Below are positions 37,093 to 51,468 of a stretch of DNA of 64,000 bases, in pieces (positions within the stretch are counted from its first letter, which is position 1; the number at the start of each line of letters is the position of its first letter). A program made the translations under genes and the position numbers. The stretch lies in IMG/VR virus record IMGVR_UViG_3300031759_000010. One strand, given 5' to 3'. This DNA is from a virus. The notes beneath the pieces are model-generated. The model made no database searches. It saw only the letters and a program-made list of their open reading frames with translations, and had not been told where the DNA came from.

Positions 37093-37312
37093 GATTTTGA
37101 GTATACCCTTCCTTGTGGTACATGGCAACTGTTTTTTTGTTTGGTTGACATCCATCGTCCGATATGTGATGATGTGAACCATGAGCTTCCGCGCCCATAC
37201 CGCATTTACACCAGCGACGGCACAGCCGCGCCAGGGTAACGATATGTAAGCGCCGGGAGATCTCCAAGTTTCGAGACCCTCGGCCGCAAGGTTCGAGGGT
37301 TTTTAGTTGGGG

Positions 37313-37341
37313 TTGAATAATGGTAGCATGCGTGTTAATGT
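37313..37341 (+). promoter_or_regulatory. sigma70-like promoter candidate at the head of the plus-strand HNH/tRNA array
   Basis: TTGAAT-17 nt-TAATGT, ending 5 nt before ATG 37347. Confidence 0.3.
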
Positions 37342-37346
37342 AAGGC

Positions 37347-37823
37347 ATGCGAAACGGCCTCTATGAACTCGTCATCGCTCCAGAAGGATATCCCGGGAAG
37401 CTGTATCGAGGAAGATACTGCTATGAACACCACTTAGTGTGGTGGAAAAACACTGGGGAATTGGTAGTCGAGCCAATGCTCATTCACCACAAGAATGACC
37501 AAAAGCGCGACAATCGTTTTGAAAATTTGGAGAAGAAAGAACGCGCCAAGCATAGTAGCGACCATACCAAAGAAAGAATGGGACCTCCTGGTTACGTTGA
37601 ATTGAAATGCGCTTGGTGTGAAAAAACTTTTCAGATTCTTCGCAGAAATTTTGCTTTCAGAAGGCGATACACGAACAACCACTGCTCCAGATCTTGTGCG
37701 GTCAAGAATCAGTGGCGGTTAGGGTTTGTAAATGTTGGCAAGAAAAAGTTTATTCACGGGAAGCTCTATGGCGAGCATTCCGCTGTTAACGGAAAAGGTG
37801 TGGGTTCGAATCCCTCCCCGTGA
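37347..37823 (+). CDS. HNH homing endonuclease
   Basis: YEHHLVWW...IHHKNDQKRDNRFENL (HNH) plus one CAWC...CSRSC module. The last 70 nt run through tRNA-Asn. Confidence 0.75.
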   Translation: MRNGLYELVIAPEGYPGKLYRGRYCYEHHLVWWKNTGELVVEPMLIHHKNDQKRDNRFENLEKKERAKHSSDHTKERMGPPGYVELKCAWCEKTFQILRRNFAFRRRYTNNHCSRSCAVKNQWRLGFVNVGKKKFIHGKLYGEHSAVNGKGVGSNPSP

Positions 37824-37824
37824 G
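37754..37824 (+). tRNA. tRNA-Asn (GTT)
   Basis: Acceptor TCACGGG/CCCGTGA, D stem GCTC/GAGC, anticodon arm TTCCG-CTGTTAA-CGGAA, T loop TTCGAAT. Confidence 0.75.
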
Positions 37825-37839
37825 CCTTTAGAAGTATGT

Positions 37840-37914
37840 TGCGCGTTGGTGAAATTGGAATCACAGATGGCTCTGAACCATCAGTAGGGGGATCAAAACC
37901 TCCACGCGCAGCCA
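37840..37914 (+). tRNA. tRNA-Gln (CTG)
   Basis: Acceptor TGCGCGT/ACGCGCA (U1:A72, G73), anticodon arm GATGG-CTCTGAA-CCATC, encoded CCA. Confidence 0.75.
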
Positions 37915-37920
37915 AGTTAT

Positions 37921-37994
37921 AGCGGGATGGCCGATTGGTTAGGCACTGGCCTTTGGCACCAGTAAGACAGGTTCAATTCCTGTTCCCGCTGCCA
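37921..37994 (+). tRNA. tRNA-Gln (TTG)
   Basis: Acceptor AGCGGGA/TCCCGCT, G73, anticodon loop CTTTGGC with one C-A mismatch in the stem, T arm ACAGG-TTCAATT-CCTGT, CCA. Confidence 0.6.
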
Positions 37995-37995
37995 T

Positions 37996-38071
37996 GCGGA
38001 CGTAGCTCAATTGGTAGAGCATTGCGCTGCCAGCGCGAAGGTTGCCGGATCATTGCCGGTCGTCCGCTCCA
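37996..38071 (+). tRNA. tRNA-Gly (GCC)
   Basis: Acceptor GCGGACG/CGTCCGC, D arm GCTC-AATTGGTA-GAGC, anticodon loop CTGCCAG, CCA. Confidence 0.8.
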
Positions 38072-38077
38072 GGTTTT

Positions 38078-38151
38078 GCCGGGTTGGTTTAGTGACATAA
38101 CGGCGGGTCCGTACCCCGCAAGCAGGCGTTTGAATCGCCTACCCGGCTCCA
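38078..38151 (+). tRNA. tRNA-Thr (CGT), C at position 33
   Basis: Acceptor GCCGGGT/ACCCGGC, anticodon arm GCGGG-TCCGTAC-CCCGC, T arm AGGCG-TTTGAAT-CGCCT, CCA. Confidence 0.65.
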
Positions 38152-38171
38152 ACTATGATACGATTTAATTT

Positions 38172-38936
38172 ATGAGACTCGTATCAAAGCAGCAGTTTAA
38201 TTCCGCTCGCAGTCGCGACCTTATCGACTTACGTTGCGATTTTTGCGACAGGATTTTCTGGTTACCGAAGCACGAGGCGATGAGGAGAGCAAAACGCGGA
38301 ACAGGAAAAACGTACTGCTCTCCTCTTTGCTCAAATGATTCACAGAGGAGGAATAAGCCAAAGCCTTGCAAGCAGTGCGGAAAAGATTGCCGCAAGATTT
38401 TTTGTTCTCACAGGTGTTCTGCGTTATTCAACAACCCCCTCAAGGCTAACAAGAAGAAAAAGTGCCTTGAGTGTGGAGTAAAGCACTCGAACAAAAAATT
38501 TTGTAGCCATGGATGCAATCAGAAAAACAAAGAGAAAGCGGTGCTCGTAGAATGGCGATCCGGAGCGCGTAGTGGGTTAACAAAGAATGGCTTTCTTTGT
38601 GAAACCGTAAGACGGTACCTTCTTGGGAAATACGACAACAAGTGCTCTAGGTGTGGATGGTGCGAGGTTAACCATAAAAGTGGAAAGGTGCCGGTTCAGA
38701 TCGAGCATATCGACGGGGATTTTCGCAATTGCAGTGAAAGCAATTTGATCGTTTTGTGCCCTAATTGCCATTCTTTAACTCCGACATACATGTCGCTTAA
38801 TCGGGGCAATGGAAGAGACGTTAACGGAATGAGGCGCAAAAAGGATGCCGGAATAGCTCAACAGGAAGAGCATATCATCGGTAATGATACGACTGGGGTT
38901 CGAGGCCCCATTTCGGCTCCAAGGTTTTTAATGTAA
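38172..38936 (+). CDS. HNH homing endonuclease with three zinc-ribbon modules
   Basis: HIDGDFRNCSESNLIVLCPNCH (HNH). CDFC..CSPLC, CKQC..CSHRC, CLEC..CSHGC. The 3' end runs through tRNA-Thr(GGT). Confidence 0.8.
   Translation: MRLVSKQQFNSARSRDLIDLRCDFCDRIFWLPKHEAMRRAKRGTGKTYCSPLCSNDSQRRNKPKPCKQCGKDCRKIFCSHRCSALFNNPLKANKKKKCLECGVKHSNKKFCSHGCNQKNKEKAVLVEWRSGARSGLTKNGFLCETVRRYLLGKYDNKCSRCGWCEVNHKSGKVPVQIEHIDGDFRNCSESNLIVLCPNCHSLTPTYMSLNRGNGRDVNGMRRKKDAGIAQQEEHIIGNDTTGVRGPISAPRFLM
38847..38921 (+). tRNA. tRNA-Thr (GGT), C at position 33
   Basis: Acceptor GCCGGAA/TTTCGGC, D arm GCTC-AACAGGAA-GAGC, anticodon arm TATCA-TCGGTAA-TGATA, T loop TTCGAGG, CCA. Confidence 0.65.
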
Positions 38937-38942
38937 GTTTTT

Positions 38943-39017
38943 GCCCTGCAAGCATTGCCGTCGATGCACCGGGCCTGTACCCCGGACAATGCCGTTAGAC
39001 TCGGCAGCAGGGCTCCA
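38943..39017 (+). tRNA. tRNA-Thr (TGT), C at position 33
   Basis: Acceptor GCCCTGC/GCAGGGC, D stem GCAT/ATGC, anticodon arm CCGGG-CCTGTAC-CCCGG, T arm TGCCG-TTAGACT-CGGCA, CCA. Confidence 0.6.
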
Positions 39018-39020
39018 AGT

Positions 39021-39100
39021 GTGGCCGTGCCGACTATTGGTATGTCGGGCATGTCTGTGGAACATGTCTCTTGTGGATTCGATTTCCACCGGCCACCCCA
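39021..39100 (+). tRNA. tRNA-His (GTG)
   Basis: Acceptor GTGGCCG/CGGCCAC with C73, anticodon arm CATGT-CTGTGGA-ACATG, T arm GTGGA-TTCGATT-TCCAC, CCA. No encoded G-1. Confidence 0.7.
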
Positions 39101-39107
39101 TTTACGC

Positions 39108-39183
39108 GGGCCCTTAGCTCATTTGGGAGAGCGCCTCGTTTGCACCGAGGAGGCGGTCGGATCGAAGCCGACAGGGTCCACCA
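39108..39183 (+). tRNA. tRNA-Ala (TGC)
   Basis: Acceptor GGGCCCT/AGGGTCC with the G3:U70 identity pair, anticodon arm CCTCG-TTTGCAC-CGAGG, CCA. Confidence 0.85.
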
Positions 39184-39245
39184 GTTTTGCCGATTGAGCT
39201 AGTGCGGTCATAGCAGTGGTTTGATTTTAATGGTATAATGCTTGC

Positions 39246-40250
39246 ATGTTCAGAACTATACCATGTAGTAAATGTGGGACAGAAATAGGGATGAATCGTA
39301 TCAAGACGCATGAACGTCTGTGCGATGGTTTTGGACCTGCCCGCCGCAGGAAAACAGTGATTTTCGAGACCGATGTAGACGGCAAGAAGATTTGTCCAGA
39401 TTGCGGTAAGAAGTGCAGCAAATATGGCGCTGCAACTCACTGGAGGATTGCTCATCGTGGCGATTATGCTGGAAGACCGTTAGGCACTGGGCCAGCAAAA
39501 GGGAAATCTTGGAACAGAGGTCTGACAAAGGAAACGGACGAAAGGATAGCGAGAGCCTGTGCCAATGTCAGTGAAGGAGTAAGGCGATACGTTGCCAACA
39601 TGACCGATGAGGACCGCAAGAAGCGATCTGAAATTGGAAGGAGAAAAAGTCCGACTAAAGGTGGCCCAAGAAAGGGGGCTGGACGTGGTAAAAGTGGGTG
39701 GTATCAAGGATTTTGGTGTGATTCGTCTTGGGAGTTGGCTTGGGTAATACACGCTATCGATCATTCAATTTCTTTCAGCAGAAATACGCTTGGTTATGAA
39801 TATGAGTTTGAGGGTAAGCGATCCAAGTTTTATCCAGACTTTCTTTTGGGTGCTGGAAACCTAGTCGAAGTCAAGGGGTATTTTGACCGACGCAACAATG
39901 CAAAGATAGCAGCAGTTGAAGGATTAACGGTTTTAGGCGAAAAAGAAATAAAGCCGTATTTGTTATATGCGGTTGAAAGGTTTGGTACTGATTTCGTTTC
40001 TGCTGCTTATCAACAACCGCCAGAATACAGATGTTGTGATTGTGGCACTGCCGTAACAAATAATGCTCCGCGCTGTGCAAGATGTGCTGGATTGAAGAGT
40101 GCGAAGTATAAGATTCAATGGCCGACAAATGAACAGTTGATCGATATGATTGGTTTAAGTAACCGAAATCAAGTTGCAAAACGGCTAGGGGTATCATTTA
40201 GTGCGATTGCGAAGCGTTTGAAAGTTCATGGACTCGTAGCTCCAATGTAG
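39246..40250 (+). CDS. putative homing endonuclease (NUMOD-like N-terminus, PD-(D/E)XK-like core, C-terminal HTH)
   Basis: SWNRGLTKETD is NUMOD3-like. YPDF...LVEVKG is PD-ExK-like. The last 21 nt overlap tRNA-Phe. Confidence 0.5.
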   Translation: MFRTIPCSKCGTEIGMNRIKTHERLCDGFGPARRRKTVIFETDVDGKKICPDCGKKCSKYGAATHWRIAHRGDYAGRPLGTGPAKGKSWNRGLTKETDERIARACANVSEGVRRYVANMTDEDRKKRSEIGRRKSPTKGGPRKGAGRGKSGWYQGFWCDSSWELAWVIHAIDHSISFSRNTLGYEYEFEGKRSKFYPDFLLGAGNLVEVKGYFDRRNNAKIAAVEGLTVLGEKEIKPYLLYAVERFGTDFVSAAYQQPPEYRCCDCGTAVTNNAPRCARCAGLKSAKYKIQWPTNEQLIDMIGLSNRNQVAKRLGVSFSAIAKRLKVHGLVAPM

Positions 40251-40304
40251 AGCGACACGTTGAAGCCGTGTGCGGTGCTGGTTCAAGTCCAGTCGAGTCC
40301 ACCA
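40230..40304 (+). tRNA. tRNA-Phe (GAA)
   Basis: Acceptor GGACTCG/CGAGTCC, A73, anticodon arm ACACG-TTGAAGC-CGTGT, T loop TTCAAGT, CCA. Confidence 0.8.
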
Positions 40305-40312
40305 TAGTTTAT

Positions 40313-40389
40313 CCGGGCCTAGCCTAGCGGCTTCAGGCACCTGTTTCGGGAACAGGATGAGCGGCGTTCAACTCGCCGGGTCCGGACCA
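40313..40389 (+). tRNA. tRNA-Pro (CGG)
   Basis: Acceptor CCGGGCC/GGTCCGG, anticodon arm CCTGT-TTCGGGA-ACAGG, T arm CGGCG-TTCAACT-CGCCG, CCA. Confidence 0.8.
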
Positions 40390-40395
40390 GCTTAA

Positions 40396-40472
40396 CCGTG
40401 TGTGGCGCAGCCAGGAAGCGCACCTGATTTGGGATCAGGGGGTCATCAGTTCGAATCTGATCACGCGGACCA
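40396..40472 (+). tRNA. tRNA-Pro (TGG)
   Basis: Acceptor CCGTGTG/CACGCGG, anticodon arm CCTGA-TTTGGGA-TCAGG, T arm ATCAG-TTCGAAT-CTGAT, CCA. Confidence 0.8.
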
Positions 40473-40476
40473 TTGA

Positions 40477-40553
40477 GGGGCTGTAGCTCATCTGGATAGA
40501 GCGCCGGTTTGCGGAACCGGAGGCAGCAAGTTCGAACCTTGCCAGCCCCACCA
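40477..40553 (+). tRNA. tRNA-Arg (GCG)
   Basis: Acceptor GGGGCTG/CAGCCCC, D arm GCTC-ATCTGGATA-GAGC, anticodon arm CCGGT-TTGCGGA-ACCGG, CCA. Confidence 0.75.
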
Positions 40554-40559
40554 TACTTC

Positions 40560-40635
40560 GCACCTGTGGCAGAGTGGATTATGCTCCTGTATTCGAAACA
40601 GGAAGACGCGGGTTCGAATCCTGCCAGGTGCCCCA
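40560..40635 (+). tRNA. tRNA-Arg (TCG)
   Basis: Acceptor GCACCTG/CAGGTGC, anticodon arm CCTGT-ATTCGAA-ACAGG, T arm GCGGG-TTCGAAT-CCTGC, CCA. Confidence 0.75.
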
Positions 40636-40682
40636 GGTTACCAAAGTTCTCTTGCAATCTTCCCCCAGACCGGCGTTATACT
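40636..40682 (+). promoter_or_regulatory. GGTTACCAAAG motif copy 2 plus sigma70-like promoter inside the tRNA array
   Basis: GGTTACCAAAG-N5-TTGCAA(40652-57)-19 nt-TATACT(40677-82). The 5' end of the CAT tRNA lies 8 nt after the -10 hexamer. Confidence 0.5.
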
Positions 40683-40689
40683 TGTCTCC

Positions 40690-40766
40690 AGCGGATATGG
40701 AGAAAGGGAGTCTCGTCAGCCTCATAAGCTGAATATCGCCGGAGTCGGGGTCCGGATCCGCAACCA
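40690..40766 (+). tRNA. tRNA with CAT anticodon (Met or Ile2-type)
   Basis: D arm GAGA-AAGGGAG-TCTC, anticodon arm TCAGC-CTCATAA-GCTGA, T stem CCGGA/TCCGG, 3' ATCCGCA-A-CCA. The 5' acceptor register is ambiguous (A1-A72 mismatch or one extra nucleotide). Confidence 0.55.
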
Positions 40767-40771
40767 AGTTT

Positions 40772-40845
40772 GGACCATTGTTCTATGGGTATGATGTTCG
40801 GCTGTCTACCGAACAGAGCGAGTTCGAGTCTCGCATGGTCCGCCA
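40772..40845 (+). tRNA. tRNA-Asp (GTC)
   Basis: Acceptor GGACCAT/ATGGTCC, G73, anticodon arm TTCGG-CTGTCTA-CCGAA, T arm GCGAG-TTCGAGT-CTCGC, CCA. The D stem is weak. Confidence 0.6.
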
Positions 40846-41152
40846 ATGTCCGGGCTGGTGTAGGCCTCCTTTCCTCCGCGCCCACCGGAGGGGACAAAGT
40901 GGGCACAAGTTTTGGAGGAACAATGATTCACGCGGAGGATGCCATGACAAGTACATAGTGAAAGGAGACTTGTCATGGGCAATGCACACGCTTCAAGGCA
41001 CCGTCGTGGGCTCGGAAAGCCATGTTCCATCGGTTGCCTTTATTGCGCGATGCGCCCCAAGGATGGGCCACCCGGGAAGCGGCGCAAAAACTACGCCAAC
41101 AAAACTTCCAGGGGCCGCCATGTTCCCCATGGGCGCAACGCAAACCGCCGCA

Positions 41153-41221
41153 AGGGTTAAGCATGTCAACGCTGTAGGGATGTGGTTTCGGACGCGGGTT
41201 CAATTCCCACCGGGTCCACCA
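41153..41221 (+). ncRNA. ssrA: tmRNA acceptor (3') piece: P2 3' strands, T arm, 3' acceptor strand, CCA
   Basis: GTTAAGCATGTCAACGCTGTAGGGATGTGGTTTCGGACGCGGGTTCAATTCCCACCGGGTCCACCA closely parallels the E. coli ssrA 3' end as I remember it. The 5' limit of the piece is not determinable by eye. Confidence 0.6.
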
Positions 41222-41293
41222 GAGAGGGTTGGAAGCTGCTTTAGGACTTACCCCCTTGGAAAAAGTGAGCGGTTAATGTCAACCCTCTCTTGT
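41222..41293 (+). other. intervening segment of the permuted tmRNA locus, closed by a perfect 10-bp stem
   Basis: GAGAGGGTTG (41222-31) pairs with CAACCCTCTC (41280-89). It starts directly after CCA and ends 4 nt before the GGGCCCG 5' end. Confidence 0.6.
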
Positions 41294-41465
41294 GGGCCCG
41301 TCACGGTTTCGACGGGATCAGGGATCTACAGTTTCATGCCGGGATTGATGCTCACCGCAACGAGAATCAAACCATAAGTGCAGCAGCATTTGCGCTCCCG
41401 GTTGCCGCCTAAACAACGGTAACCCGTGGACGGCCGGGTTCCATGTAAAAAAACACCCGGCAAGG
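41294..41465 (+). ncRNA. ssrA: tmRNA coding (5') piece: 5' acceptor strand, D-loop analogue, PK1 region, tag reading frame
   Basis: GGGCCCGTCACGGTTTCGACGGGAT...TTCATGCCGGG is the canonical tmRNA 5' domain. Tag frame 41359-41412 encodes NENQTISAAAFALPVAA then stop. The 3' limit is set arbitrarily before tRNA-Glu. Confidence 0.6.
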
Positions 41466-41469
41466 TTTT

Positions 41470-41546
41470 GGCCCTGTCTGCTAAGTGGATAGGCAACTGG
41501 ACTCTCACTCCGGAAATGACGGGTTCGAATCCCGCCAGGGCTACCA
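41470..41546 (+). tRNA. tRNA-Glu (CTC)
   Basis: Acceptor GGCCCTG/CAGGGCT (G1-U72), anticodon arm CTGGA-CTCTCAC-TCCGG, T loop TTCGAAT, CCA. Confidence 0.7.
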
Positions 41547-41593
41547 AGTTGCATTTGTTTGGGAATTACGTACTTAACTCCCTTGGAGGGTAA

Positions 41594-42067
41594 ATGAGCA
41601 TCGTTCATCAAAGTCAGTTGATGCCAGCCGAGAACAAGTTTCACGTCGGCAATAGCGAAGATGGAAAACATTACTGGATCACTCCGCCTGATCTCTATTC
41701 GGCGCTGGACACAGAGTTTCACTTCGATTTTGACCCATGCCCCTTCCCGCTTCCGGTAGGCTTTGACGGCCTCACTTGCGAATGGGGTAAGTCTAATTAC
41801 GTCAATCCGCCGTTTGGGTCCATCATTCATCAAGGCAAGAAGAAAGGTCCGACCGCTTGGGTCCGTAAGTCCATTGAAGAGCAGCAAAAAGGGAACCTCG
41901 TTGTGCTTGTCTACCCCGTCGATAAATGGGTGCTCATGATGCTCAAGGCTATCGGGACTAAAGTCCGAAACCTTGGCGACGTTCGATGGCTTGCAACTGA
42001 GGACATGTCCATCGGCAAAGGTACTGGAAGGCATATTGCAGCTTTCATTTTGGAGCCGAAACTGTGA
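41594..42067 (+). CDS. DNA N6-adenine methyltransferase, phage Dam (T1-type) family
   Basis: FDFDPCP ... NYVNPPFG (motif IV NPPF) ... VVLVYP. Small single-domain enzyme. Confidence 0.75.
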   Translation: MSIVHQSQLMPAENKFHVGNSEDGKHYWITPPDLYSALDTEFHFDFDPCPFPLPVGFDGLTCEWGKSNYVNPPFGSIIHQGKKKGPTAWVRKSIEEQQKGNLVVLVYPVDKWVLMMLKAIGTKVRNLGDVRWLATEDMSIGKGTGRHIAAFILEPKL

Positions 42068-42100
42068 AAGGGACTCAAGTATATAAGTCCCATTTGTTTT

Positions 42101-42178
42101 GAGATGGCAGGCTGCGTCGGTTTGGCCCACGGTCTTTCACACCGTGCTACGCGGGTTCGACTCCCGTCCATCTCGCCA
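42101..42178 (+). tRNA. tRNA-Glu (TTC)
   Basis: Acceptor GAGATGG/CCATCTC, anticodon arm ACGGT-CTTTCAC-ACCGT, T arm GCGGG-TTCGACT-CCCGT, CCA. Confidence 0.75.
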
Positions 42179-42196
42179 GTTCTATGAGGAGGAATC

Positions 42197-42379
42197 GTGA
42201 AGGTTGCAAGGAGTCACATCGTCGCCGCAATCGAGGTAGCTGATCAGATCAAGAACGGCAAGATTCTTTTTTATCCCAAATACGCCATCAAGGCCAAACG
42301 CTATGCCGGAAAAGACAAATCCACCGGCGAGTTTGGGTGGACGGTATCGGTTGTTCCTCTCCGGCCAGTCAAAGCATAA
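42197..42379 (+). CDS. hypothetical small protein (60 aa)
   Basis: Track ORF. Stop lies 2 nt before the GGQ-protein ATG. Confidence 0.4.
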   Translation: MKVARSHIVAAIEVADQIKNGKILFYPKYAIKAKRYAGKDKSTGEFGWTVSVVPLRPVKA

Positions 42380-42381
42380 AA

Positions 42382-42714
42382 ATGAAAACCCTCTTGTTTT
42401 CCCTTACTTCAAAAGATTTCGAGTTTCAGACTTTTTGCACTGGCGGCAACGGCGGCCAACACCGCAACGCAAAGCAAAACGGTGTGCGGTGTATCCATAC
42501 AGCCTCTGGGGCCAGGGCCGAACACCGCGACGGACGCGATCAGCGGAAGAATAAGGAAGAAGCCTTCCGCAAATGCGCCGAGACCCCTCAGTTTAAGGCT
42601 TGGCACAGGGCTGAAACTATGCGCCGCATGGGCCTCATGAAGAGCGTTGACCGGGCCGTTGATGAGGCTATGAGGCCAGAAAACATCAAGGTCGAGATTT
42701 TGAATGGGATCTAA
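42382..42714 (+). CDS. GGQ-motif release-factor-domain protein (ArfB/RF-1-domain-like peptidyl-tRNA hydrolase)
   Basis: TGGNGGQHRNAKQNGVRCIHTASG...RDQRKNKEEA matches the class I release factor PTH domain with the catalytic GGQ. Only 110 aa, so no codon-recognition domains. Confidence 0.8.
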   Translation: MKTLLFSLTSKDFEFQTFCTGGNGGQHRNAKQNGVRCIHTASGARAEHRDGRDQRKNKEEAFRKCAETPQFKAWHRAETMRRMGLMKSVDRAVDEAMRPENIKVEILNGI

Positions 42715-42738
42715 AGAGGACTTCGAGGAGTCTGATTG

Positions 42739-42812
42739 TGGAGCGGCCGAGGAGATTCAAACTCCCGTCATCGGATTGGAAGTCCGAGGCCCTATCATTG
42801 GACGACGGCCGC
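42739..42812 (-). tRNA. tRNA-Gly (TCC)
   Basis: Minus strand: acceptor GCGGCCG/CGGCCGC, anticodon arm TCGGA-CTTCCAA-TCCGA, T arm GGGAG-TTTGAAT-CTCCT, CCA. Confidence 0.8.
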
Positions 42813-42817
42813 AAATT

Positions 42818-42855
42818 TGGTGCCGGATGCTGGGCTTGAACCAGCTACCTCTCGC
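42818..42855 (-). tRNA. 3' half of a split tRNA gene (anticodon-stem 3' strand, variable loop, T arm, acceptor 3' strand, CCA)
   Basis: Minus strand: GCGAG-AGGTA-GCTGG-TTCAAGC-CCAGC-ATCCGGC-A-CCA. The acceptor strand is perfectly complementary to GCCGGAT at 43424-43430. Confidence 0.6.
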
Positions 42856-43320
42856 TTATATCGTATCCAATTGATCAACCGATTTTAATTCATAGTCTGA
42901 TGCCAATCTAACTCCTCGCACTTGATTGTTGGCTGACGGCTTGAATCTCAAGGCAATATCCCTTTTCAATTGTCTCAATAAATCTGGTCCGAATAGATAG
43001 AACTTCCGATCATTCGGTTCGTAAGCTACGAGTGCATCTACTTGATTTTCGTAGCTACGATGAACAACTTTTCCGTGGTCAGTTGTATTATTTACAAATG
43101 ATACCGAGAATGTCTTACCATTATTACGCCATGTTGTTTTTACCTGCACTCGTAGCAGTCGTTTTCCAGTGTCTACGATCATATCGTAGCGGTGGCGGTC
43201 TCCAAGTGGAACAGATACCGCTAATCCTTGTTCAACACACCATAGAGCAAACCTCATCTCAGATATGTCGCCTGTCTGCTTGGTGTTAATTTTTGTTGTC
43301 GCGTTAATCATCGAACTCAC
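42856..43320 (-). CDS. PD-(D/E)XK endonuclease, I-Ssp6803I-like (PDDEXK_5-like)
   Basis: GDISEMRFALWCVEQGLAVSVPLGDRHRYDMIVD...LLRVQVKTT follows the E...D...QVK pattern of that family as I remember it. Sits between the two halves of a tRNA gene. Confidence 0.55.
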   Translation of the reverse strand: MSSMINATTKINTKQTGDISEMRFALWCVEQGLAVSVPLGDRHRYDMIVDTGKRLLRVQVKTTWRNNGKTFSVSFVNNTTDHGKVVHRSYENQVDALVAYEPNDRKFYLFGPDLLRQLKRDIALRFKPSANNQVRGVRLASDYELKSVDQLDTI

Positions 43321-43395
43321 AACCTTTCCATTATCGATGGAATCCTATTCCAAATTTATCTACGCTACAATCATATAACACATTACTCCTGTATA

Positions 43396-43430
43396 CCGAA
43401 CGCTCTAAGCCATCGGTGAGCTAATCCGGC
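43396..43430 (-). tRNA. 5' half of the same split tRNA gene (acceptor 5' strand, D arm, anticodon-stem 5' strand)
   Basis: Minus strand: GCCGGAT-TA-GCTC-ACCGATGGCTTA-GAGC-G-TTCGG, followed by TATACAGG... and the endonuclease ORF. Confidence 0.6.
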
Positions 43431-43435
43431 AAACC

Positions 43436-43511
43436 TGGTGCGGAGTGAGGGACTCGAACCCCCGACGACCTGCTTGTAAGGCAGACGATCTAGCCGCTGA
43501 TCAAACTCCGC
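43436..43511 (-). tRNA. tRNA-Val (TAC)
   Basis: Acceptor GCGGAGT/ACTCCGC, D arm GATC-AGCGGCTA-GATC, anticodon arm TCTGC-CTTACAA-GCAGG, T loop TTCGAGT, CCA. Confidence 0.8.
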
Positions 43512-43584
43512 AAAATACCCTAAACAACTTATAACTTAGGCGTATACATCAAAAAACCGGAACACGCCCAAGATACAAAGCAAC

Positions 43585-43661
43585 TGGAGCTGCCGACAGG
43601 ACTCGAACCTGCCTTATCCACCTACGGTGTTCGCCTTCGGAGGGCGACCCGGTACGGCAGC
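43585..43661 (-). tRNA. atypical tRNA-like gene, Arg (CCG)-type anticodon hairpin, no recognisable D arm
   Basis: Acceptor GCTGCCG/CGGCAGC, T arm GCAGG-TTCGAGT-CCTGT and CCA are canonical. The only good internal hairpin, TCGCC-CTCCGAA-GGCGA, starts 7 nt after the acceptor and is followed by an 18-nt segment containing the mini-hairpin CACC-GTA-GGTG. Confidence 0.4.
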
Positions 43662-43665
43662 AAAC

Positions 43666-43742
43666 TGGTGGTCGCAGGAAGAGTCGAACTTCCGGCCTAC
43701 GGTTTAGGAAACCATCGCTCTATCCGTCTGAGCTATGCGACC
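43666..43742 (-). tRNA. tRNA-Arg (CCT)
   Basis: Acceptor GGTCGCA/TGCGACC, D arm GCTC-AGACGGATA-GAGC, anticodon arm ATGGT-TTCCTAA-ACCGT, T arm GGAAG-TTCGACT-CTTCC, CCA. Confidence 0.8.
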
Positions 43743-43759
43743 AAATCTGGTGATCCTAA

Positions 43760-43834
43760 TGGAAGACCTATCCCGGATCGAACGGGAATCATTCGCTTAG
43801 AAGGCGAGGCTCTATCCCTTTGAGCTATAGGTCC
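43760..43834 (-). tRNA. tRNA-Arg (TCT)
   Basis: Acceptor GGACCTA/TAGGTCT, D arm GCTC-AAAGGGATA-GAGC, anticodon hairpin TCGC-CTTCTAA-GCGA (4 bp plus a C-A mismatch), T arm TCCCG-TTCGATC-CGGGA, CCA. Confidence 0.65.
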
Positions 43835-43836
43835 AT

Positions 43837-43915
43837 TGGTGAGACGGGTGAGATTTGAACTCACGTTTATGACGACTTAAAAGGTCGTTGCCGAACCAGA
43901 CTAGGCGACCGTCTC
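43837..43915 (-). tRNA. tRNA-Lys (TTT)
   Basis: Acceptor GAGACGG/CCGTCTC, anticodon arm ACGAC-CTTTTAA-GTCGT, T arm GTGAG-TTCAAAT-CTCAC, CCA. Confidence 0.75.
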
Positions 43916-44500
43916 TCGTAAATTCTTGGTATATTCTCTGTTTGCTCTTGTACAACCATCGCAATGCCGAAGACCGCGACGAGCTTCTGCTAAGTATCCC
44001 GACCTTGTTCCGTGCTGAATTTCAAGCAGTTTTCTCGGACCACCGTTGTTCTTCTTTTGATATTTACGAACGCAATCCTTGCAGTCAGATGCTAAACCAT
44101 CCCAACGGCTTTTGTTCTTGCTGAACATCGCAACTGGCTGAGGCTTTTTGCAGGTTGAGCATCGTTTTGTCCCGTCTTCTTGGAGAGCGTTTCTGTACCT
44201 GCCGGATTGTTCCGCGCAATTCTGCATCTGTGAAACAATCCTTATGTTTCCAAGTTCGTAGTGACCAGAATCGCCAATCCTTGCCGCGTTAGGTGTAACG
44301 TCAGGATTCTCTTTTTGAAACTTCTCGTATTCAGGGATGGCCCATTTCAGCCATTCATCCCACGTCATTCGTAATTCCACATTCGCGTAAGAGGGGTTCT
44401 TCCCATCTTTATTAAGACACCTTTTCAACATCCCATAATACGCTGCTTTTGCTCGATAAAGAGGGGTGCGATGAATCTCCGGGCTTTTGTAGGCAATCAT
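43901..44500 (-). CDS. putative HNH_3-type homing endonuclease
   Basis: GDSGHYELGNIRIVSQMQN resembles the HNH_3 core. Cys pairs CSTC, CKDC, CDGC. The last 15 nt overlap the 5' end of tRNA-Lys(TTT). Confidence 0.5.
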   Translation of the reverse strand: MIAYKSPEIHRTPLYRAKAAYYGMLKRCLNKDGKNPSYANVELRMTWDEWLKWAIPEYEKFQKENPDVTPNAARIGDSGHYELGNIRIVSQMQNCAEQSGRYRNALQEDGTKRCSTCKKPQPVAMFSKNKSRWDGLASDCKDCVRKYQKKNNGGPRKLLEIQHGTRSGYLAEARRGLRHCDGCTRANREYTKNLRETVA

Positions 44501-44535
44501 GTCTTAAACTTAAAATAATCTTGCCTACGTGTCAA

Positions 44536-44611
44536 TGGTGGATGCGGAAGGATTTGAACCTTCATCTTCACGGGTAAGGGCCGTGCATACTAGCCGTTGT
44601 ACTACGCATCC
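44536..44611 (-). tRNA. tRNA-Lys (CTT), C at position 33
   Basis: Acceptor GGATGCG/CGCATCC, anticodon arm CACGG-CCCTTAC-CCGTG, T arm GAAGG-TTCAAAT-CCTTC, CCA. Confidence 0.7.
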
Positions 44612-44613
44612 AC

Positions 44614-44708
44614 TGGGGCCGGAAGAGGGAATCGAACCCGTCTCGCATCGGTAATCTACCGACAACTACAAGGCTTATAAGACCTCGCGGCAACCTATGC
44701 TTTCCGGC
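44614..44708 (-). tRNA. atypical 95-nt tRNA-like gene, anticodon loop CTTATAA (TAT), long extra arm
   Basis: Perfect acceptor GCCGGAA/TTCCGGC, C73, CCA, and T loop GGGTTCGATTCCC. Anticodon hairpin GAGGT-CTTATAA-GCCTT, extendable to 7 bp. Extra arm TCGGTA-GAT-TACCGA. The D stem and outer T stem do not pair canonically. Confidence 0.4.
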
Positions 44709-44822
44709 AAAACTGCTGTTGTGCGATCCGGCCCTTACATCGGAAAAGATGCAGGATATTCCGGTTACTCGCTAGTCAGGCTCTCGCCCTTCTGCTGCCG
44801 CGTTTCACCCGCACAACAACCT

Positions 44823-44895
44823 TGGTGCCGCACGGGGGAAACGATCCCCTACTCCGTCTGCTTTATGAGGGCAGCGTTCCTCTTGGATATGCGGC
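44823..44895 (-). tRNA. tRNA with CAT anticodon (Met or Ile2-type)
   Basis: Acceptor GCCGCAT/GTGCGGC, anticodon arm CTGCC-CTCATAA-AGCAG (one C-A mismatch), T loop ATCGTTT, CCA. Short D region. Confidence 0.55.
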
Positions 44896-44900
44896 GAGTC

Positions 44901-44971
44901 TGGCGCGGGACCGGAGAGTCGAACTCCGCACGGCGGCGTTTGGAGTGCTGCCTGATCTCGGATCGTCCCGC
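44901..44971 (-). tRNA. tRNA-Trp (CCA), compact
   Basis: Acceptor GCGGGAC/GTCCCGC, G73, T arm CGGAG-TTCGACT-CTCCG, anticodon loop CTCCAAA in a stem with two A-C mismatches. Small D arm. Confidence 0.5.
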
Positions 44972-44987
44972 ATTTTCAAAGAGCATT

Positions 44988-45011
44988 AAAAAACCCCCAC
45001 CTGAGTGGAGG
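44988..45011 (-). terminator. intrinsic terminator inside the minus-strand tRNA array
   Basis: Minus-strand sense CCTCCAC-TCAG-GTGGGGG (7-bp stem), followed by TTTTTT. Confidence 0.6.
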
Positions 45012-45138
45012 TCTGGTGGTGCCAACACGCAGACCCCTAAGACACGACTCCCCAAATGACCCGCTTGGTCATCCTGGTTATCGGTTTGGTCTTGGTCATC
45101 ATGTTGTTAATCTTCCCATGGATGGGCTGCGATGTCAA

Positions 45139-45229
45139 TGGTGCGTTCGGCAGGATTCGAACCTGCAGCGTCCTCAAAGAGGATTCCGGGTTACAGCCGG
45201 ACAGTGTCCACCGTCTCACCAGCGAACGC
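45139..45229 (-). tRNA. tRNA-Tyr (GTA), type II
   Basis: Acceptor GCGTTCG/CGAACGC, A73, anticodon arm TCCGG-CTGTAAC-CCGGA, long variable arm CCTC-TTTG-GAGG, T arm GCAGG-TTCGAAT-CCTGC, CCA. Confidence 0.8.
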
Positions 45230-45235
45230 ACAATA

Positions 45236-45322
45236 TGGTGGAGGGTAATGGTATCCATCCATCATCCCTTACGGGAGCCACGGTGTTCAGGACCGTTTGC
45301 CTCAGCATCGGCGGTACCCTCC
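45236..45322 (-). tRNA. tRNA-Ser (TGA), type II, C at position 33
   Basis: Acceptor GGAGGGT/ACCCTCC, anticodon arm ACGGT-CCTGAAC-ACCGT, variable arm TCCC-GTAA-GGGA, T arm GATGG-ATGGATA-CCATT, CCA. Confidence 0.65.
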
Positions 45323-45327
45323 AAACT

Positions 45328-45414
45328 TGGCGGTAGCGGCGTGAGTCCAACACGCAACGGCTTTCACCGTGTCCGCTTTCGAGGCGGGTGGGCTTGGCAA
45401 TGCCCAACGCTACC
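45328..45414 (-). tRNA. tRNA-Ser (CGA), type II
   Basis: Acceptor GGTAGCG/CGCTACC, G73, D stem GGGC/GCCC, anticodon loop CTCGAAA, variable arm ACGG-TGAAAG-CCGT, T arm GCGTG-TTGGACT-CACGC, CCA. Confidence 0.75.
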
Positions 45415-45415
45415 G

Positions 45416-45501
45416 TGGAGGAAGGCAGGTCACTCGAAGACCAGTCCTTACGGACCTCATCGCTTTCCAAGCGAGACCACAACCTCAGTGGTTTACCTTC
45501 C
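45416..45501 (-). tRNA. tRNA-Ser (GGA), type II
   Basis: Acceptor GGAAGGT/GCCTTCC, anticodon loop TTGGAAA, variable arm GTCC-GTAA-GGAC, T loop TTCGAGT, CCA. Confidence 0.7.
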
Positions 45502-45506
45502 CAAAC

Positions 45507-45593
45507 TGGCGGAGAGCCGAGGTCTTGATCCCCACTCCCGAAGGAGCCATCGGTTTAGCAAACCGCGCCCATGCCCTGACGGGTTGACTCTCC
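45507..45593 (-). tRNA. tRNA-Ser (GCT), type II
   Basis: Acceptor GGAGAGT/GCTCTCC, G73, anticodon loop TTGCTAA, variable arm CTCC-TTCG-GGAG, CCA. Confidence 0.7.
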
Positions 45594-45658
45594 AAAATAT
45601 CTACTGCATCGACATATCACCAAAACATGTCGATTTTCTGCCCATCTTTCGACGTATT

Positions 45659-45739
45659 TGGTGCCGCACGTCAGAATCGAACTGACAAACAATCAACAGT
45701 TTTTGAAACTGTCCGCTTTACCTATTTGCGTAGTGCGGC
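45659..45739 (-). tRNA. tRNA-Leu (CAA)
   Basis: Acceptor GCCGCAC/GTGCGGC, A73, anticodon arm ACAGT-TTCAAAA-ACTGT, T arm GTCAG-TTCGATT-CTGAC, CCA. Confidence 0.75.
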
Positions 45740-45746
45740 ACAATTT

Positions 45747-45838
45747 TGGTAGGCGTGGTGGGGGTCGAACCCACAGGTGACCGTTTAGGGTACGGCAGTT
45801 TCTAAGACTGCTGGCTGATCCAATTCGCCGTCACGCCC
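45747..45838 (-). tRNA. tRNA-Leu (TAG), type II
   Basis: Acceptor GGGCGTG/CACGCCT, A73, anticodon arm GCAGT-CTTAGAA-ACTGC, long variable region, T arm GTGGG-TTCGACC-CCCAC, CCA. Confidence 0.75.
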
Positions 45839-45914
45839 ACGTTTTTGTTTTTTCTTCCACTCGTTAATAGTAAAATTGTGAGCTTTCTTGCAAGCATCAC
45901 ATCTGCACCCACGT

Positions 45915-45988
45915 TGGAGAGCGCGAGAGGAATCGGACCTCCGTAAACGGCTTTGCAGGCCGCTGCATGACCACTCTGCCACGCGCTC
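45915..45988 (-). tRNA. tRNA-Cys (GCA)
   Basis: Acceptor GAGCGCG/CGCGCTC with U73, anticodon arm GCGGC-CTGCAAA-GCCGT, T arm GGAGG-TCCGATT-CCTCT, CCA. Confidence 0.8.
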
Positions 45989-45989
45989 G

Positions 45990-46064
45990 TGTGGGAACCG
46001 GGAGTCGAACCCGGAGACAACGGTTTTTAAGACCGTCCGCTCGATCCATTCGGCGTGTTCCCAC
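45990..46064 (-). tRNA. tRNA-Leu (TAA), short variable loop, no encoded CCA
   Basis: Acceptor GTGGGAA/TTCCCAC, A73, anticodon arm ACGGT-CTTAAAA-ACCGT, T arm CCGGG-TTCGACT-CCCGG. Confidence 0.7.
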
Positions 46065-46099
46065 AAAAGAAAAACCCTCCAAACCTTTCGGCTGGAGGG
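46065..46099 (-). terminator. intrinsic terminator between the leftward small-gene unit and the tRNA array
   Basis: Minus-strand sense CCCTCCA-GCCGAAAGGTT-TGGAGGG, followed by TTTTTCTTTT. Confidence 0.6.
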
Positions 46100-46221
46100 C
46101 GCTTCCTCACGAATCTCTTATCGTGTCAGGCGCACCCATCCCCGCAGGATGACAGATACGAACTGAGCGACAAGTTCTTCATGTGTTCCACCTTCTCACA
46201 AGAGCAACCGCATGACAAGGT

Positions 46222-51391: not shown

Positions 51392-51468
51392 TGCCGAAAC
51401 CCCCCCATGGGGGTCCGCCGGAAATAGCCTACCGGCGCTGATAAGGCAGGCTAGAGAGCAGGGAATCA

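Follow-up and report, generated by a model that had tools for sequence, protein, structure and literature searches.

Organization of the tRNA-rich island

The DNA considered here is a 64,000-nt stretch (the window, numbered from its first letter) of the phage record IMGVR_UViG_3300031759_000010, and its subject is an island of ~8.7 kb at positions 37347–46099 that combines transfer RNA (tRNA) genes, a transfer-messenger RNA (tmRNA) gene and the gene of a small protein with a GGQ motif. The island is built of two convergent blocks, one on the plus strand (37347–42714) and one on the minus strand (46064–42739). It contains 33 well-formed and four defective tRNA genes, a permuted tmRNA, the GGQ protein, a methylase and five nuclease open reading frames (ORFs). 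A first-pass annotation, made from the letters alone, had described a translation island of tRNA arrays, tmRNA and GGQ protein. This island is real, its parts being called by ARAGORN, Rfam, Pfam, PHROG and a cloverleaf scan of our own. The blocks meet within 25 nt, as annotated: position 42714 is the last of the GGQ stop codon, and 42739 is where tRNA-Gly(TCC) has its 3′ end. Two features were absent from that annotation, namely the permuted two-piece type of the tmRNA and the five nuclease ORFs among the tRNAs. The island is probably a phage 'tRNA array unit' that supports translation, and the combination of array, permuted tmRNA and small GGQ protein is already of a known type, known from mycobacteriophages and other large phages.

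The window had been taken as phage DNA, and this is borne out by ORFs outside the island that match portal, large terminase, tail-fibre, DnaB helicase and replication-initiator families. The element is a soil-type phage. Its GC content is ~55% across the window, with a slight dip within the island. Megablast of the island and of positions 1–25000 against 50,697 phage records gave only trivial tRNA-Pro matches or none, and no close relative at the DNA level was found.

tRNA genes

Detection of the tRNA genes relies on three methods. With default settings, ARAGORN reports 28 tRNAs along with one permuted tmRNA; all lie within 37754–46064, and the rest of the 64 kb has none. The Rfam tRNA model RF00005 passes 25 tRNAs at its gathering score of 29 bits. 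The cloverleaf scan, which scores the pairing of the four stems and gives credit for an encoded CCA, finds 29 candidates with a score of at least 21 inside 37300–46200 versus 1 in the other ~55 kb, both strands included. The 33 well-formed genes have a scan score of at least 20 or a default ARAGORN call; five of them (Thr-TGT, one CAT, Ser-TGA, Ser-GGA, and Ser-GCT) come from the scan together with ARAGORN at a lowered threshold. Four further genes (Arg-CCG, Trp-CCA, a second CAT, and a long-arm TAT) are aberrant, with perfect or near-perfect acceptor stems, the annotated anticodon loops and an encoded CCA but defective arms. The total is 37 genes, 18 on the plus and 19 on the minus strand, or 33–37 genes in 8.7 kb, and CCA is genome-encoded in 35 of the 37. 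The genes are as follows, with Rfam scores for the tRNA model unless another is named and with minimum free energy abbreviated as MFE.

37754–37826, plus: tRNA-Asn (GTT); ARAGORN; Rfam 55.9 bits; no encoded CCA
37840–37914, plus: tRNA-Gln (CTG); ARAGORN; Rfam 50.5 bits
37921–37994, plus: tRNA-Gln (TTG); ARAGORN; Rfam 55.2 bits
37996–38071, plus: tRNA-Gly (GCC); ARAGORN; Rfam 56.1 bits
38078–38151, plus: tRNA-Thr (CGT); ARAGORN; Rfam 50.8 bits
38847–38921, plus: tRNA-Thr (GGT); ARAGORN; Rfam 54.9 bits
38943–39017, plus: tRNA-Thr (TGT); top score of own scan, 23; ARAGORN at lowered threshold only; no Rfam tRNA match
39021–39100, plus: tRNA-His (GTG), 80 nt; ARAGORN; Rfam tRNA-Sec model alone, 26.1 bits
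39108–39183, plus: tRNA-Ala (TGC); ARAGORN; Rfam 54.8 bits
40230–40304, plus: tRNA-Phe (GAA); ARAGORN; Rfam 54.7 bits
40313–40389, plus: tRNA-Pro (CGG); ARAGORN; Rfam 33.2 bits
40396–40472, plus: tRNA-Pro (TGG); ARAGORN; Rfam 60.8 bits
40477–40553, plus: tRNA-Arg (GCG); ARAGORN; Rfam 66.4 bits, the best score of the array
40560–40635, plus: tRNA-Arg (TCG); ARAGORN; Rfam 58 bits
40690–40766, plus: CAT tRNA, Met or Ile2; own scan score 21; MFE fold is a cloverleaf; no Rfam match
40772–40845, plus: tRNA-Asp (GTC); ARAGORN; Rfam 46.5 bits
41470–41546, plus: tRNA-Glu (CTC); ARAGORN; Rfam 43.4 bits
42101–42178, plus: tRNA-Glu (TTC), 78 nt; ARAGORN; Rfam tRNA-Sec model alone, 31.1 bits
42739–42812, minus: tRNA-Gly (TCC), last of the minus array; ARAGORN; Rfam 58.6 bits
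43436–43511, minus: tRNA-Val (TAC); ARAGORN; Rfam 60 bits
43585–43661, minus: aberrant tRNA-Arg (CCG); hand fold; MFE; lowered-threshold ARAGORN; tRNA-Sec model 23.2 bits
43666–43742, minus: tRNA-Arg (CCT); ARAGORN; Rfam 66.1 bits
43760–43834, minus: tRNA-Arg (TCT); ARAGORN; Rfam 47.6 bits
43837–43915, minus: tRNA-Lys (TTT); ARAGORN; Rfam 53.1 bits
44536–44611, minus: tRNA-Lys (CTT); ARAGORN; Rfam 61.8 bits
44614–44708, minus: long-arm tRNA-like gene (TAT), 95 nt; MFE and hand fold; tRNA-Sec model 21.2 bits
44823–44895, minus: aberrant tRNA (CAT); lowered-threshold ARAGORN; MFE cloverleaf, z = -2.1; no Rfam match
44901–44971, minus: aberrant tRNA-Trp (CCA); hand fold; MFE; alignment with 9 canonical Trp tRNAs of relatives
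45139–45229, minus: tRNA-Tyr (GTA), class II; ARAGORN; Rfam 46.7 bits
45236–45322, minus: tRNA-Ser (TGA); own scan score 22; 8/4 test; A73
45328–45414, minus: tRNA-Ser (CGA), standard 7/5; ARAGORN; own scan; geometry test
45416–45501, minus: tRNA-Ser (GGA), 8/4; lowered-threshold ARAGORN; own scan; geometry test
45507–45593, minus: tRNA-Ser (GCT), 8/4; lowered-threshold ARAGORN; own scan; geometry test
45659–45739, minus: tRNA-Leu (CAA); ARAGORN; Rfam 53.7 bits
45747–45838, minus: tRNA-Leu (TAG); ARAGORN; Rfam 41.2 bits
45915–45988, minus: tRNA-Cys (GCA); ARAGORN; Rfam 59.2 bits
45989–46064, minus: tRNA-Leu (TAA), first of the minus array; ARAGORN; Rfam 43.1 bits; no encoded CCA

Two of the genes without an Rfam tRNA match have unusual loops. 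In Thr-TGT the four stems are perfect, the D loop lacks GG and the T loop reads TTAGACT; the CAT tRNA at 40690–40766 has an A1–A72 mismatch and the T loop GTCGGGG.

The first-pass annotation had counted 18 plus-strand and about 20 minus-strand genes, in agreement with the 18 and 19 found apart from one 'split gene', and every anticodon that it listed is present. The bulk of its 38 tRNA genes stands, while about four or five are structurally defective. The 'split gene' (~44710–44835) is rejected as a tRNA: it has a long closing stem, yet CCA and an anticodon loop are both missing and the fold is not significant (z = -1.25). Other candidates were also set aside. ARAGORN at a lowered threshold calls a tRNA-Ile(GAT) at 43295–43369 (minus strand), which has poor T and D stems, no CCA and 38.7% GC, and overlaps the start of a nuclease ORF. 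A second such call, at 44614–44691, is an alternative fold of the UAU gene in which the loop of the extra arm is taken as the anticodon. The intron mode of ARAGORN gives implausible calls only, with kilobase-sized introns. No amber-suppressor tRNA is present in the window.

Permuted tmRNA

The tmRNA locus of the first-pass annotation is confirmed as a complete permuted two-piece gene. The Rfam model tmRNA_permuted (RF04321) matches 41161–41412 at 89.4 bits against a gathering score of 47 and covers model positions 1–213, the whole model; ARAGORN agrees. The beta-type tmRNA model stays below threshold (56.7 bits versus 84). The gene has three parts, all on the plus strand.

41161–41221, plus: acceptor piece, with T arm and 3′ acceptor strand CGGGTCC, A73 and CCA; Rfam alignment; sequence
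41222–41293, plus: intervening segment, presumably removed on processing; inverted repeat; Rfam alignment
41294–41465, plus: coding piece, with 5′ acceptor strand GGGCCCG; 3′ end approximate; ARAGORN; sequence; Rfam alignment

A 21-nt inverted repeat (41211–41231 with 41280–41300, 90% complementary) closes the intervening segment and joins both ends. The acceptor stem consists of 7 bp, in which GGGCCCG at 41294–41300 pairs with CGGGTCC at 41211–41217, and includes a G3:U70 pair followed by A73 and CCA; the T loop reads TTCAATT. The G3:U70 pair is required by alanyl-tRNA synthetase. The tag ORF at 41380–41412 (GCA GCA GCA TTT GCG CTC CCG GTT GCC GCC TAA) encodes AAAFALPVAA and a stop codon, with GCA as resume codon and a hydrophobic C-terminus.

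The two-piece tmRNAs of Alpha- and Betaproteobacteria and of cyanobacteria (RF04321) share with this gene the order of acceptor piece, loop and coding piece, the G3:U70 pair and a tag ending in VAA. In contrast with these, the tag here is short (10 codons) and no SmpB gene was found nearby. Phage tmRNAs have been catalogued (PMC4131195), with 79 in a 2025 database (PMC11915505), and a two-piece tmRNA is on record in a marine methylophage (PMC9004378). An nhmmer search of 35 related loci with the window tmRNA returned nothing, and Rfam models were needed for the tmRNAs of relatives.

The small GGQ protein

42382–42714, plus: isolated GGQ protein (release factor (RF) domain 3), 110 amino acids (aa); Pfam RF-1; PHROG 3122; PDB searches; AlphaFold; Foldseek

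The protein matches Pfam RF-1 (PF00472) at 43.1 bits against a cut-off of 35, with the GGQ motif at residues 24–26. PHROG 3122, 'RF-1 domain peptide chain release factor', is matched at E = 4.9e-20 by residues 3–106 over profile positions 22–121 of 136. Sequence searches of the PDB, with the single protein and with a 26-member profile, find domain 3 of RF1, mtRF1a/mtRF1, RF2 and PrfH, and weakly C12orf65; the alignment to RF1 is limited to its residues 218–304. The AlphaFold (AF2) model has a mean predicted local distance difference test (pLDDT) score of 84.7, and the predicted fold is placed by Foldseek with RF2, RF1 and mtRF1a at a probability of 1.0. The assignment of this ORF to the peptidyl-tRNA hydrolase domain of release factors is thus backed by a Pfam score above cut-off and by a structural match.

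Membership of two known classes was considered and rejected. The protein is not a class I release factor, as domain 1 and the stop-codon domains 2 and 4 (PxT/SPF) are absent and NCBIfam scores reach 35–42 bits against cut-offs of 370–423. Nor is it ArfB-like, the class against which the first-pass annotation proposed to check it: it has no basic tail, no ArfB/ICT1 chain occurs among 45–52 PDB matches at E ≤1, and sequence and fold go with domain 3 of RF1, RF2 and PrfH. The last 44 aa (residues 67–110) contain 8 K/R and 7 D/E, with an isoelectric point (pI) of 8.6, and are modelled as two helices at pLDDT 76–94; the pI of the E. coli ArfB tail is about 12. In 26 homologues of 104–134 aa, the GGQ-H-x-N and V-R-x-x-H motifs show little or no variation, and the two extra C-terminal helices carry an invariant F71/W74/H75/E78 patch. 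From its sequence, the GGQ protein is a class I release factor reduced to its catalytic domain and extended by two additional conserved helices.

Among known systems, ArfB (YaeJ)/ICT1 has in common with the window protein a stand-alone GGQ domain without codon-recognition domains, and by this analogy the chemistry of peptidyl-tRNA hydrolysis is probably the same. ArfB/ICT1 differs in its flexible linker and strongly basic C-terminal helix that senses the empty mRNA channel, a tail that the window protein lacks. PrfH and mtRF-R (C12orf65) are shortened release-factor relatives that act on damaged or split ribosomes, and both are among the sequence or fold matches. PrfH (~200 aa), however, has retained a domain for reading the damaged decoding centre and has RtcB as its partner, while mtRF-R needs MTRES1; no partner of either type was found among the window ORFs scanned. 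Homologues of the window protein number more than 499, mostly of 104–134 aa and 69–87% identity, an identical protein occurs on a public contig that extends to 90.5 kb, and many other phages encode GGQ-domain proteins of 60–135 aa.

The two rescue genes could in principle be debris, the tmRNA a remnant of an integration site (a 3′ copy of ssrA) and the GGQ ORF a truncated, captured fragment of a release factor. tmRNA genes are common integration targets (PMC4383910, PMC11915505), and the window encodes a serine recombinase outside the island at 59177–60019 (plus strand; Pfam Resolvase 1.2e-34). The tmRNA, in contrast, is complete, with both pieces, the tRNA-like domain, a tag ORF with stop codon and a match to the full Rfam model, and as a remnant it is rejected. 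The GGQ protein likewise belongs to a conserved family of ~110 aa with C-terminal helices of its own, which is not a random truncation. An origin of both genes as debris is therefore very improbable.

Relatives and known systems

The GGQ protein is present in 34 IMG/VR loci, 23 of which have tRNAs within 10 kb of the gene. These arrays can be large, with 38 tRNAs near the GGQ gene in locus L012, 35 in L022, 34 in L034 and 31 in L011. Locus L004 has the same tRNA order as the window within each of the two blocks, with the blocks arranged and oriented differently. The closest cultured relatives of the GGQ protein are in phages of Tunturiibacter (Acidobacteriota), Tunturi_4 (71% identity) and Tunturi_3 (66%), and ~205 mycobacteriophage records contain homologues at 35–45% identity. 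In the Tunturi and mycobacteriophage records these homologues are annotated as 'RF-1 domain peptide chain release factor'.

The distance between the GGQ gene and a permuted tmRNA is 5 nt in Tunturi_4, where the tmRNA is downstream, 5.4 kb in Tunturi_3 and 4 kb in locus L033. The small GGQ protein is thus recurrent in tRNA-rich phages, and in four cases a permuted tmRNA is no more than 6 kb away. The tmRNAs of Tunturi_4 (L035, 9344–9753, 79.2 bits) and Tunturi_3 (L037, 394–618, 63.3 bits) are unannotated in the GenBank stretches inspected. The paper describing these phages (PMC11924767) reports one to three tRNA genes in Tunturi_3 and Tunturi_4 and makes no mention of a tmRNA or release factor; its 'tRNA (unknown)' of Tunturi_4 is probably the tRNA-like domain of the permuted tmRNA gene. 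Both phages share with the window phage a permuted tmRNA near the GGQ gene and a GC content of ~55%, but carry the rescue pair without a tRNA array, whereas the window phage has both. The host of the window phage likely belongs to the Acidobacteriota.

Known counterparts of the island are the 'tRNA array units' in chromosomes, plasmids and phages of Mycobacterium, which contain a tmRNA, a coding sequence (CDS) with an RF-1 domain, Pth and HNH (Morgado and Vicente 2018, PMC5966550). Extra capacity for ribosome rescue was proposed for these units, and HNH is their most widespread CDS (PMC5966550). The units, including those of the cluster C phages Bxz1, Catera and Cane17, hold dozens of tRNAs for nearly all amino acids, a tmRNA, an RF-1-domain protein and HNH, and the same is true here: the window has a dense tRNA cluster in a mobile genome, with HNH, tmRNA and RF-1-domain content. 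The mycobacterial units differ in their actinobacterial hosts and, in Cane17, in the position of the RF-1 gene outside the array; here the tmRNA is permuted and the host likely acidobacterial.

Several observations were made in the neighbourhood of the GGQ gene in other loci. A CUA (amber suppressor) anticodon and a call with a 4-base anticodon occur a few kb from the gene (L001/L002, 12298–12372; L022, 6738–6813 and 6933–7030), a hint that some phages of this group reassign or suppress stop codons. Other RNAs near the GGQ gene are group I introns, a twister-P5 ribozyme and a CyVA-1 RNA (L008, 8087–8266; L017, 4149–4316 and 5271–5447; L005, 5108–5171; L033, 7245–7321).

Decoding capacity

The calculation of codon coverage was based on the 15,774 codons of 60 ORFs that lie outside the island and do not overlap, and it allowed Watson–Crick pairing, G:U and U:G wobble and reading of four-codon boxes by U34. 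All sense codons are covered by phage tRNAs except the Ile codons AUC and AUU, which make up 650 of the 15,774 codons (41 per 1000). Trp is covered by the aberrant gene alone. tRNAs for the rarest codons are present, namely for CUA, UUA, and CGA (3.6, 3.2, and 4.6 per 1000), which makes the set a broad one, not one fitted to demand. One Arg anticodon, GCG (40477–40553), is unusual, and relatives carry ACG in its place. ACG, the usual Arg anticodon in bacteria, needs deamination to inosine; Arg-GCG would read CGC and CGU without inosine modification by the host.

These numbers bear on an account of the island in which codon supply or compensation for host shut-off is sufficient and no defence system plays a part: the tRNAs increase supply for the codons that the phage uses, or sustain translation after the phage has degraded the genome and transcripts of the host, and the rescue genes cope with truncated mRNAs. 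The GC content (~55%) and codon use of the phage are ordinary. The tmRNA acts on non-stop mRNAs, which rise upon mRNA degradation. Codon supply is also the classical account of phage tRNAs, cited for Tunturi_5 (PMC11924767). Contrary to demand-matching, the most-used Ile codons are without a tRNA while the rarest codons have one, a comparison made on phage codon usage. As the whole explanation, this account is a possibility that falls clearly short of probable.

Non-canonical tRNAs and the long-arm tRNA(UAU)

Several tRNAs of the array depart from standard geometry. Ser-TGA, Ser-GGA and Ser-GCT have 8/8 acceptor pairs and 4/4 T-stem pairs in the 8/4 register, better than in 7/5, and Ser-CGA is 7/5. 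Arg-CCG has perfect acceptor, anticodon and T arms but no D arm (a 7-nt linker in its place) and an 18-nt variable arm. In Trp-CCA the acceptor and T arms are good, only 3/5 anticodon-stem pairs form and a normal D arm is missing. The second CAT tRNA (44823–44895) has a reduced D arm and the T loop ATCGTTT. Relatives carry canonical Trp and Arg-CCG genes, and the window copies therefore look damaged or at least divergent. tRNA-His has C73, a 5-bp D stem and a 6-nt variable region, with T, not G, at position -1. A genome-encoded G-1:C73 is the usual identity pair of tRNA-His, and it is missing here because of this T. The Rfam tRNA-Sec model is the sole, weak match for His, Glu-TTC, Arg-CCG, and the TAT gene. 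It is due to such geometry that standard finders miss a quarter of the array.

The TAT gene of the window has an extra arm (TCGGT-AGATT-ACCGA), a disrupted T stem and C73 followed by CCA. Intact relatives of 90–94 nt with A73 lie in tRNA arrays of loci L007 (8554–8647), L012 (12468–12557), and L034 (9784–9877). A pattern scan of IMG/VR yielded at least 120 stretches for a long-arm UAU tRNA (L038–L157). Among the stretches listed, ARAGORN calls at least 98 as tRNA-Ile(tat) of 88–99 nt, of which 89 are unique. The 4-bp stem of the extra arm is perfect in 78 of the 89 unique listed members and occurs in 32 different sequences, indicating that the stem covaries. The loop of this arm is a 7-nt Y-AGAU-N-R, with CAGAUUA in 52 of these 89. 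When the scan is run without the AGAT requirement, ~78 of the 120 stretches listed (~65%) still have AGAT, and several others have CGATTA or TGATTA, so that GAU is kept. GAU is the anticodon of the major tRNA-Ile. On these features the window TAT gene is classed as a member of this widespread phage tRNA(UAU) family. It is speculated that a long-arm tRNA(UAU) with a GAU loop helps explain how phages decode AUA.

Similar RNAs have been described. Mukai et al. 2017 (PMC5389517) report '8/4' forms of tRNA-Ser and tRNA-His from clusters of phage tRNA genes, and allo-tRNAs from metagenomes derived from Acidobacteria. Its 8/4 tRNAs and allo-tRNA(UAU) have an 8-bp acceptor and a 4-bp T stem, like the three Ser tRNAs of the window. 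Allo-tRNAs were first found there by matching to the tRNA-Sec model, as His, Glu-UUC, Arg-CCG, and the UAU gene match here. UAU with a long arm is the most abundant allo-tRNA type there, linked to Acidobacteria, and the window also has a long-arm UAU. The setting differs, being a phage tRNA array here, whereas the allo-tRNAs described there adjoin toxin–antitoxin or transposon genes. Some members of the phage tRNA(UAU) family share with that allo-tRNA(UAU) a tetraloop D arm and a long anticodon stem. The allo-tRNA(UAU) was, according to the same paper, inactive as an amber suppressor after a change of anticodon, which would be expected if its identity depends on Ile-type elements. No description of the GAU-bearing loop motif was found in the literature search, nor in the passages of PMC5389517 consulted.

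It is tempting to regard the non-canonical RNAs as a deliberately divergent kit, in which the 8/4 Ser tRNAs, the D-armless Arg and the UAU tRNA with its GAU loop escape host tRNA nucleases. In the same proposal, the GGQ protein is a new class of phage rescue factor that frees the peptides of ribosomes stalled with mRNA in the A site, beyond the reach of ArfB and tmRNA and alongside the phage tmRNA. This proposal is rather unlikely.

Another reading holds that the island is a specific anti-defence module: the array replaces host tRNAs cut or depleted by anticodon nucleases (PrrC, RloC, VapC, PARIS, or retron-type), the odd tRNAs are escape variants, and the GGQ protein and tmRNA clear jammed ribosomes. 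Features consistent with it are the breadth of the set, which is not tuned to frequent codons and includes tRNAs for CUA, UUA, and CGA, the frequency of non-canonical structures, and the recurrence of rescue genes with tRNA arrays. tRNA arrays have been called putative anti-defence systems (PMC12803027), and phage tRNAs and peptidyl-tRNA hydrolases have been read as responses to tRNA-cleaving defences (Iyer et al., PMC7824862). Against this stand the aberrant genes, which look damaged rather than redesigned (3/5 pairs in Trp, a broken T stem in UAU) and are intact in relatives, and the lack of an Ile-GAU. A counter-measure against tRNA-targeting defence is plausible and agrees with published thinking (PMC7824862, PMC12803027), but plain translational support fits the same facts, and a specific anti-defence module is a doubtful, if possible, reading of the island.

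Nucleases and other features of the island

Seven further ORFs lie in the island.

37347–37823, plus: HNH endonuclease ORF, 158 aa, 3′ end runs into tRNA-Asn; Pfam HNH_3 1.1e-7; PHROG 7545 1.7e-10
38172–38936, plus: HNH endonuclease ORF, 254 aa, overlaps tRNA-Thr(GGT); PHROG 1271 1.2e-14; weak Pfam HNH_3
39246–40250, plus: endonuclease-like ORF, 334 aa, C-terminal helix-turn-helix (HTH), 21-nt overlap with tRNA-Phe; PHROG 945 6.6e-6; weak HTH matches
41594–42067, plus: probable N6-adenine DNA methyltransferase, 157 aa, NPPF motif; Pfam Dam; PHROG 111; sequence
42197–42379, plus: 60-aa ORF directly upstream of the GGQ gene; ORF list; also called as a gene on a public contig
42856–43320, minus: PD-(D/E)XK endonuclease ORF, 154 aa; Pfam PDDEXK_5 1.1e-31
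43901–44500, minus: endonuclease VII/HNH-like ORF, 199 aa; PHROG 1035 endonuclease VII 1e-11; other HNH PHROGs

The five homing-type nuclease ORFs comprise three HNH/endonuclease VII-like proteins, one PD-(D/E)XK protein and one 'endonuclease', and four of the five run into the next tRNA gene. They raise the possibility that the island is largely selfish cargo, a mosaic spread by homing endonucleases in which many tRNAs, and perhaps the GGQ gene, are neutral or decaying. Consistent with such cargo, there are five nuclease ORFs in 8.7 kb with four overlapping the adjacent tRNA gene, block order and orientation differ from the syntenic L004 (a rearrangement that fits nuclease-driven shuffling), four tRNA genes are defective, and HNH heads the CDSs of tRNA array units (PMC5966550). 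On the other hand, 33 tRNA genes keep perfect or near-perfect stems, nearly all with an encoded CCA, and in the GGQ family both the catalytic motif and the length are preserved among hundreds of homologues at 70–87% identity. Such preservation indicates purifying selection, and an island of mainly selfish cargo is distinctly unlikely.

The ORF annotated as a Dam methylase is a probable methyltransferase by its match to PHROG 111 ('DNA methyltransferase', 1.7e-15) and its NPPF catalytic-type motif, while the Dam label falls just short, with Pfam PF05869 at 27.5 bits against a cut-off of 28.1. It is a probable N6-adenine methylase. The 60-aa ORF has no family match in the Pfam, NCBIfam, and PHROG scans.

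A scan for promoters and terminators gave signals not above shuffled expectation, and operon boundaries are not claimed. A 40-nt similarity is common to the 3′ trailers of tRNA-Lys(CTT) and tRNA-Tyr, with TTGACA directly after CCA (44530–44535 and 45133–45138, minus strand), and a hairpin followed by a run of T6 lies at ~44985–45020 (minus strand). The minus array may thus contain a promoter and a terminator of its own that split it into sections. A repeat search detected similarity between tRNA arms only and no flanking repeats marking a cassette. Outside the island, a further HNH endonuclease is encoded at 47346–47906 (minus strand), and an intergenic type II hammerhead ribozyme lies ~5 kb away at 51392–51455 (plus strand; Rfam 41.9 bits versus a gathering score of 37).

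Proposed role of the island

As a translation-support island, the locus would function as follows. Both blocks would be transcribed as polycistronic precursors, and the tRNAs would be processed by host enzymes and charged by host synthetases. Once charged by the host alanyl-tRNA synthetase, the tmRNA would, together with the SmpB of the host, tag and free ribosomes trapped on broken mRNAs. The GGQ protein may enter the A site, either of stalled ribosomes or of large subunits after splitting, where it would hydrolyse peptidyl-tRNA independently of the codon. Overall, translation of the phage would be sustained while host tRNAs or mRNAs are being depleted, degraded or cut. Depletion could be caused by the phage's own shut-off of the host or by host defence, the sequence being compatible with either. 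The nuclease ORFs would be selfish passengers that shuffle the array between relatives.

A number of points weigh against this interpretation. The role in translation is a reading of gene content and RNA features, and no experimental study of the activity of any phage small GGQ protein was found in the literature search. The Rfam tRNA cut-off is failed by 12 of the 37 genes (His, Glu-TTC, Thr-TGT, the first CAT, the four Ser genes, Arg-CCG, TAT, the second CAT, and Trp); together with the four genes with defective arms, these failures may mean that part of the array is decaying. No tRNA-Ile(GAU) is present in the window, and several relatives encode one. The set therefore cannot replace the host pool, and the phage still depends on its host; the tRNA set is near-complete, as first described, but it does not make the phage independent of the host, given the missing Ile-GAU and 41 codons per 1000. 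The link between the two rescue genes is loose, since 22 of the 23 IMG/VR loci tested have no tmRNA less than 10 kb from the GGQ gene. In the cluster C mycobacteriophage Cane17, the GGQ homologue lies among replication genes and not in the tRNA array. Finally, tblastn of the 64-kb window with an E. coli SmpB query, a weak test, gave no match better than E = 0.37. With no SmpB detected (aminoacyl-tRNA synthetase genes were not searched for), rescue and charging most likely rely on host factors.

Implications

With the island, the known range of the package of tRNA array, tmRNA and small release factor reaches beyond mycobacteriophages to a large phage group that is mostly uncultured. Its closest cultured members have hosts among the Acidobacteriota, a phylum dominant in soil. 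The tmRNA of the package can be of the two-piece type. Of most use as a lead is the small GGQ protein, with more than 499 homologues of ~110 aa that keep the catalytic motif and the extra helical patch. The culturable phages Tunturi_3 and Tunturi_4 carry the GGQ protein near a tmRNA, so that a direct genetic and biochemical test is feasible.

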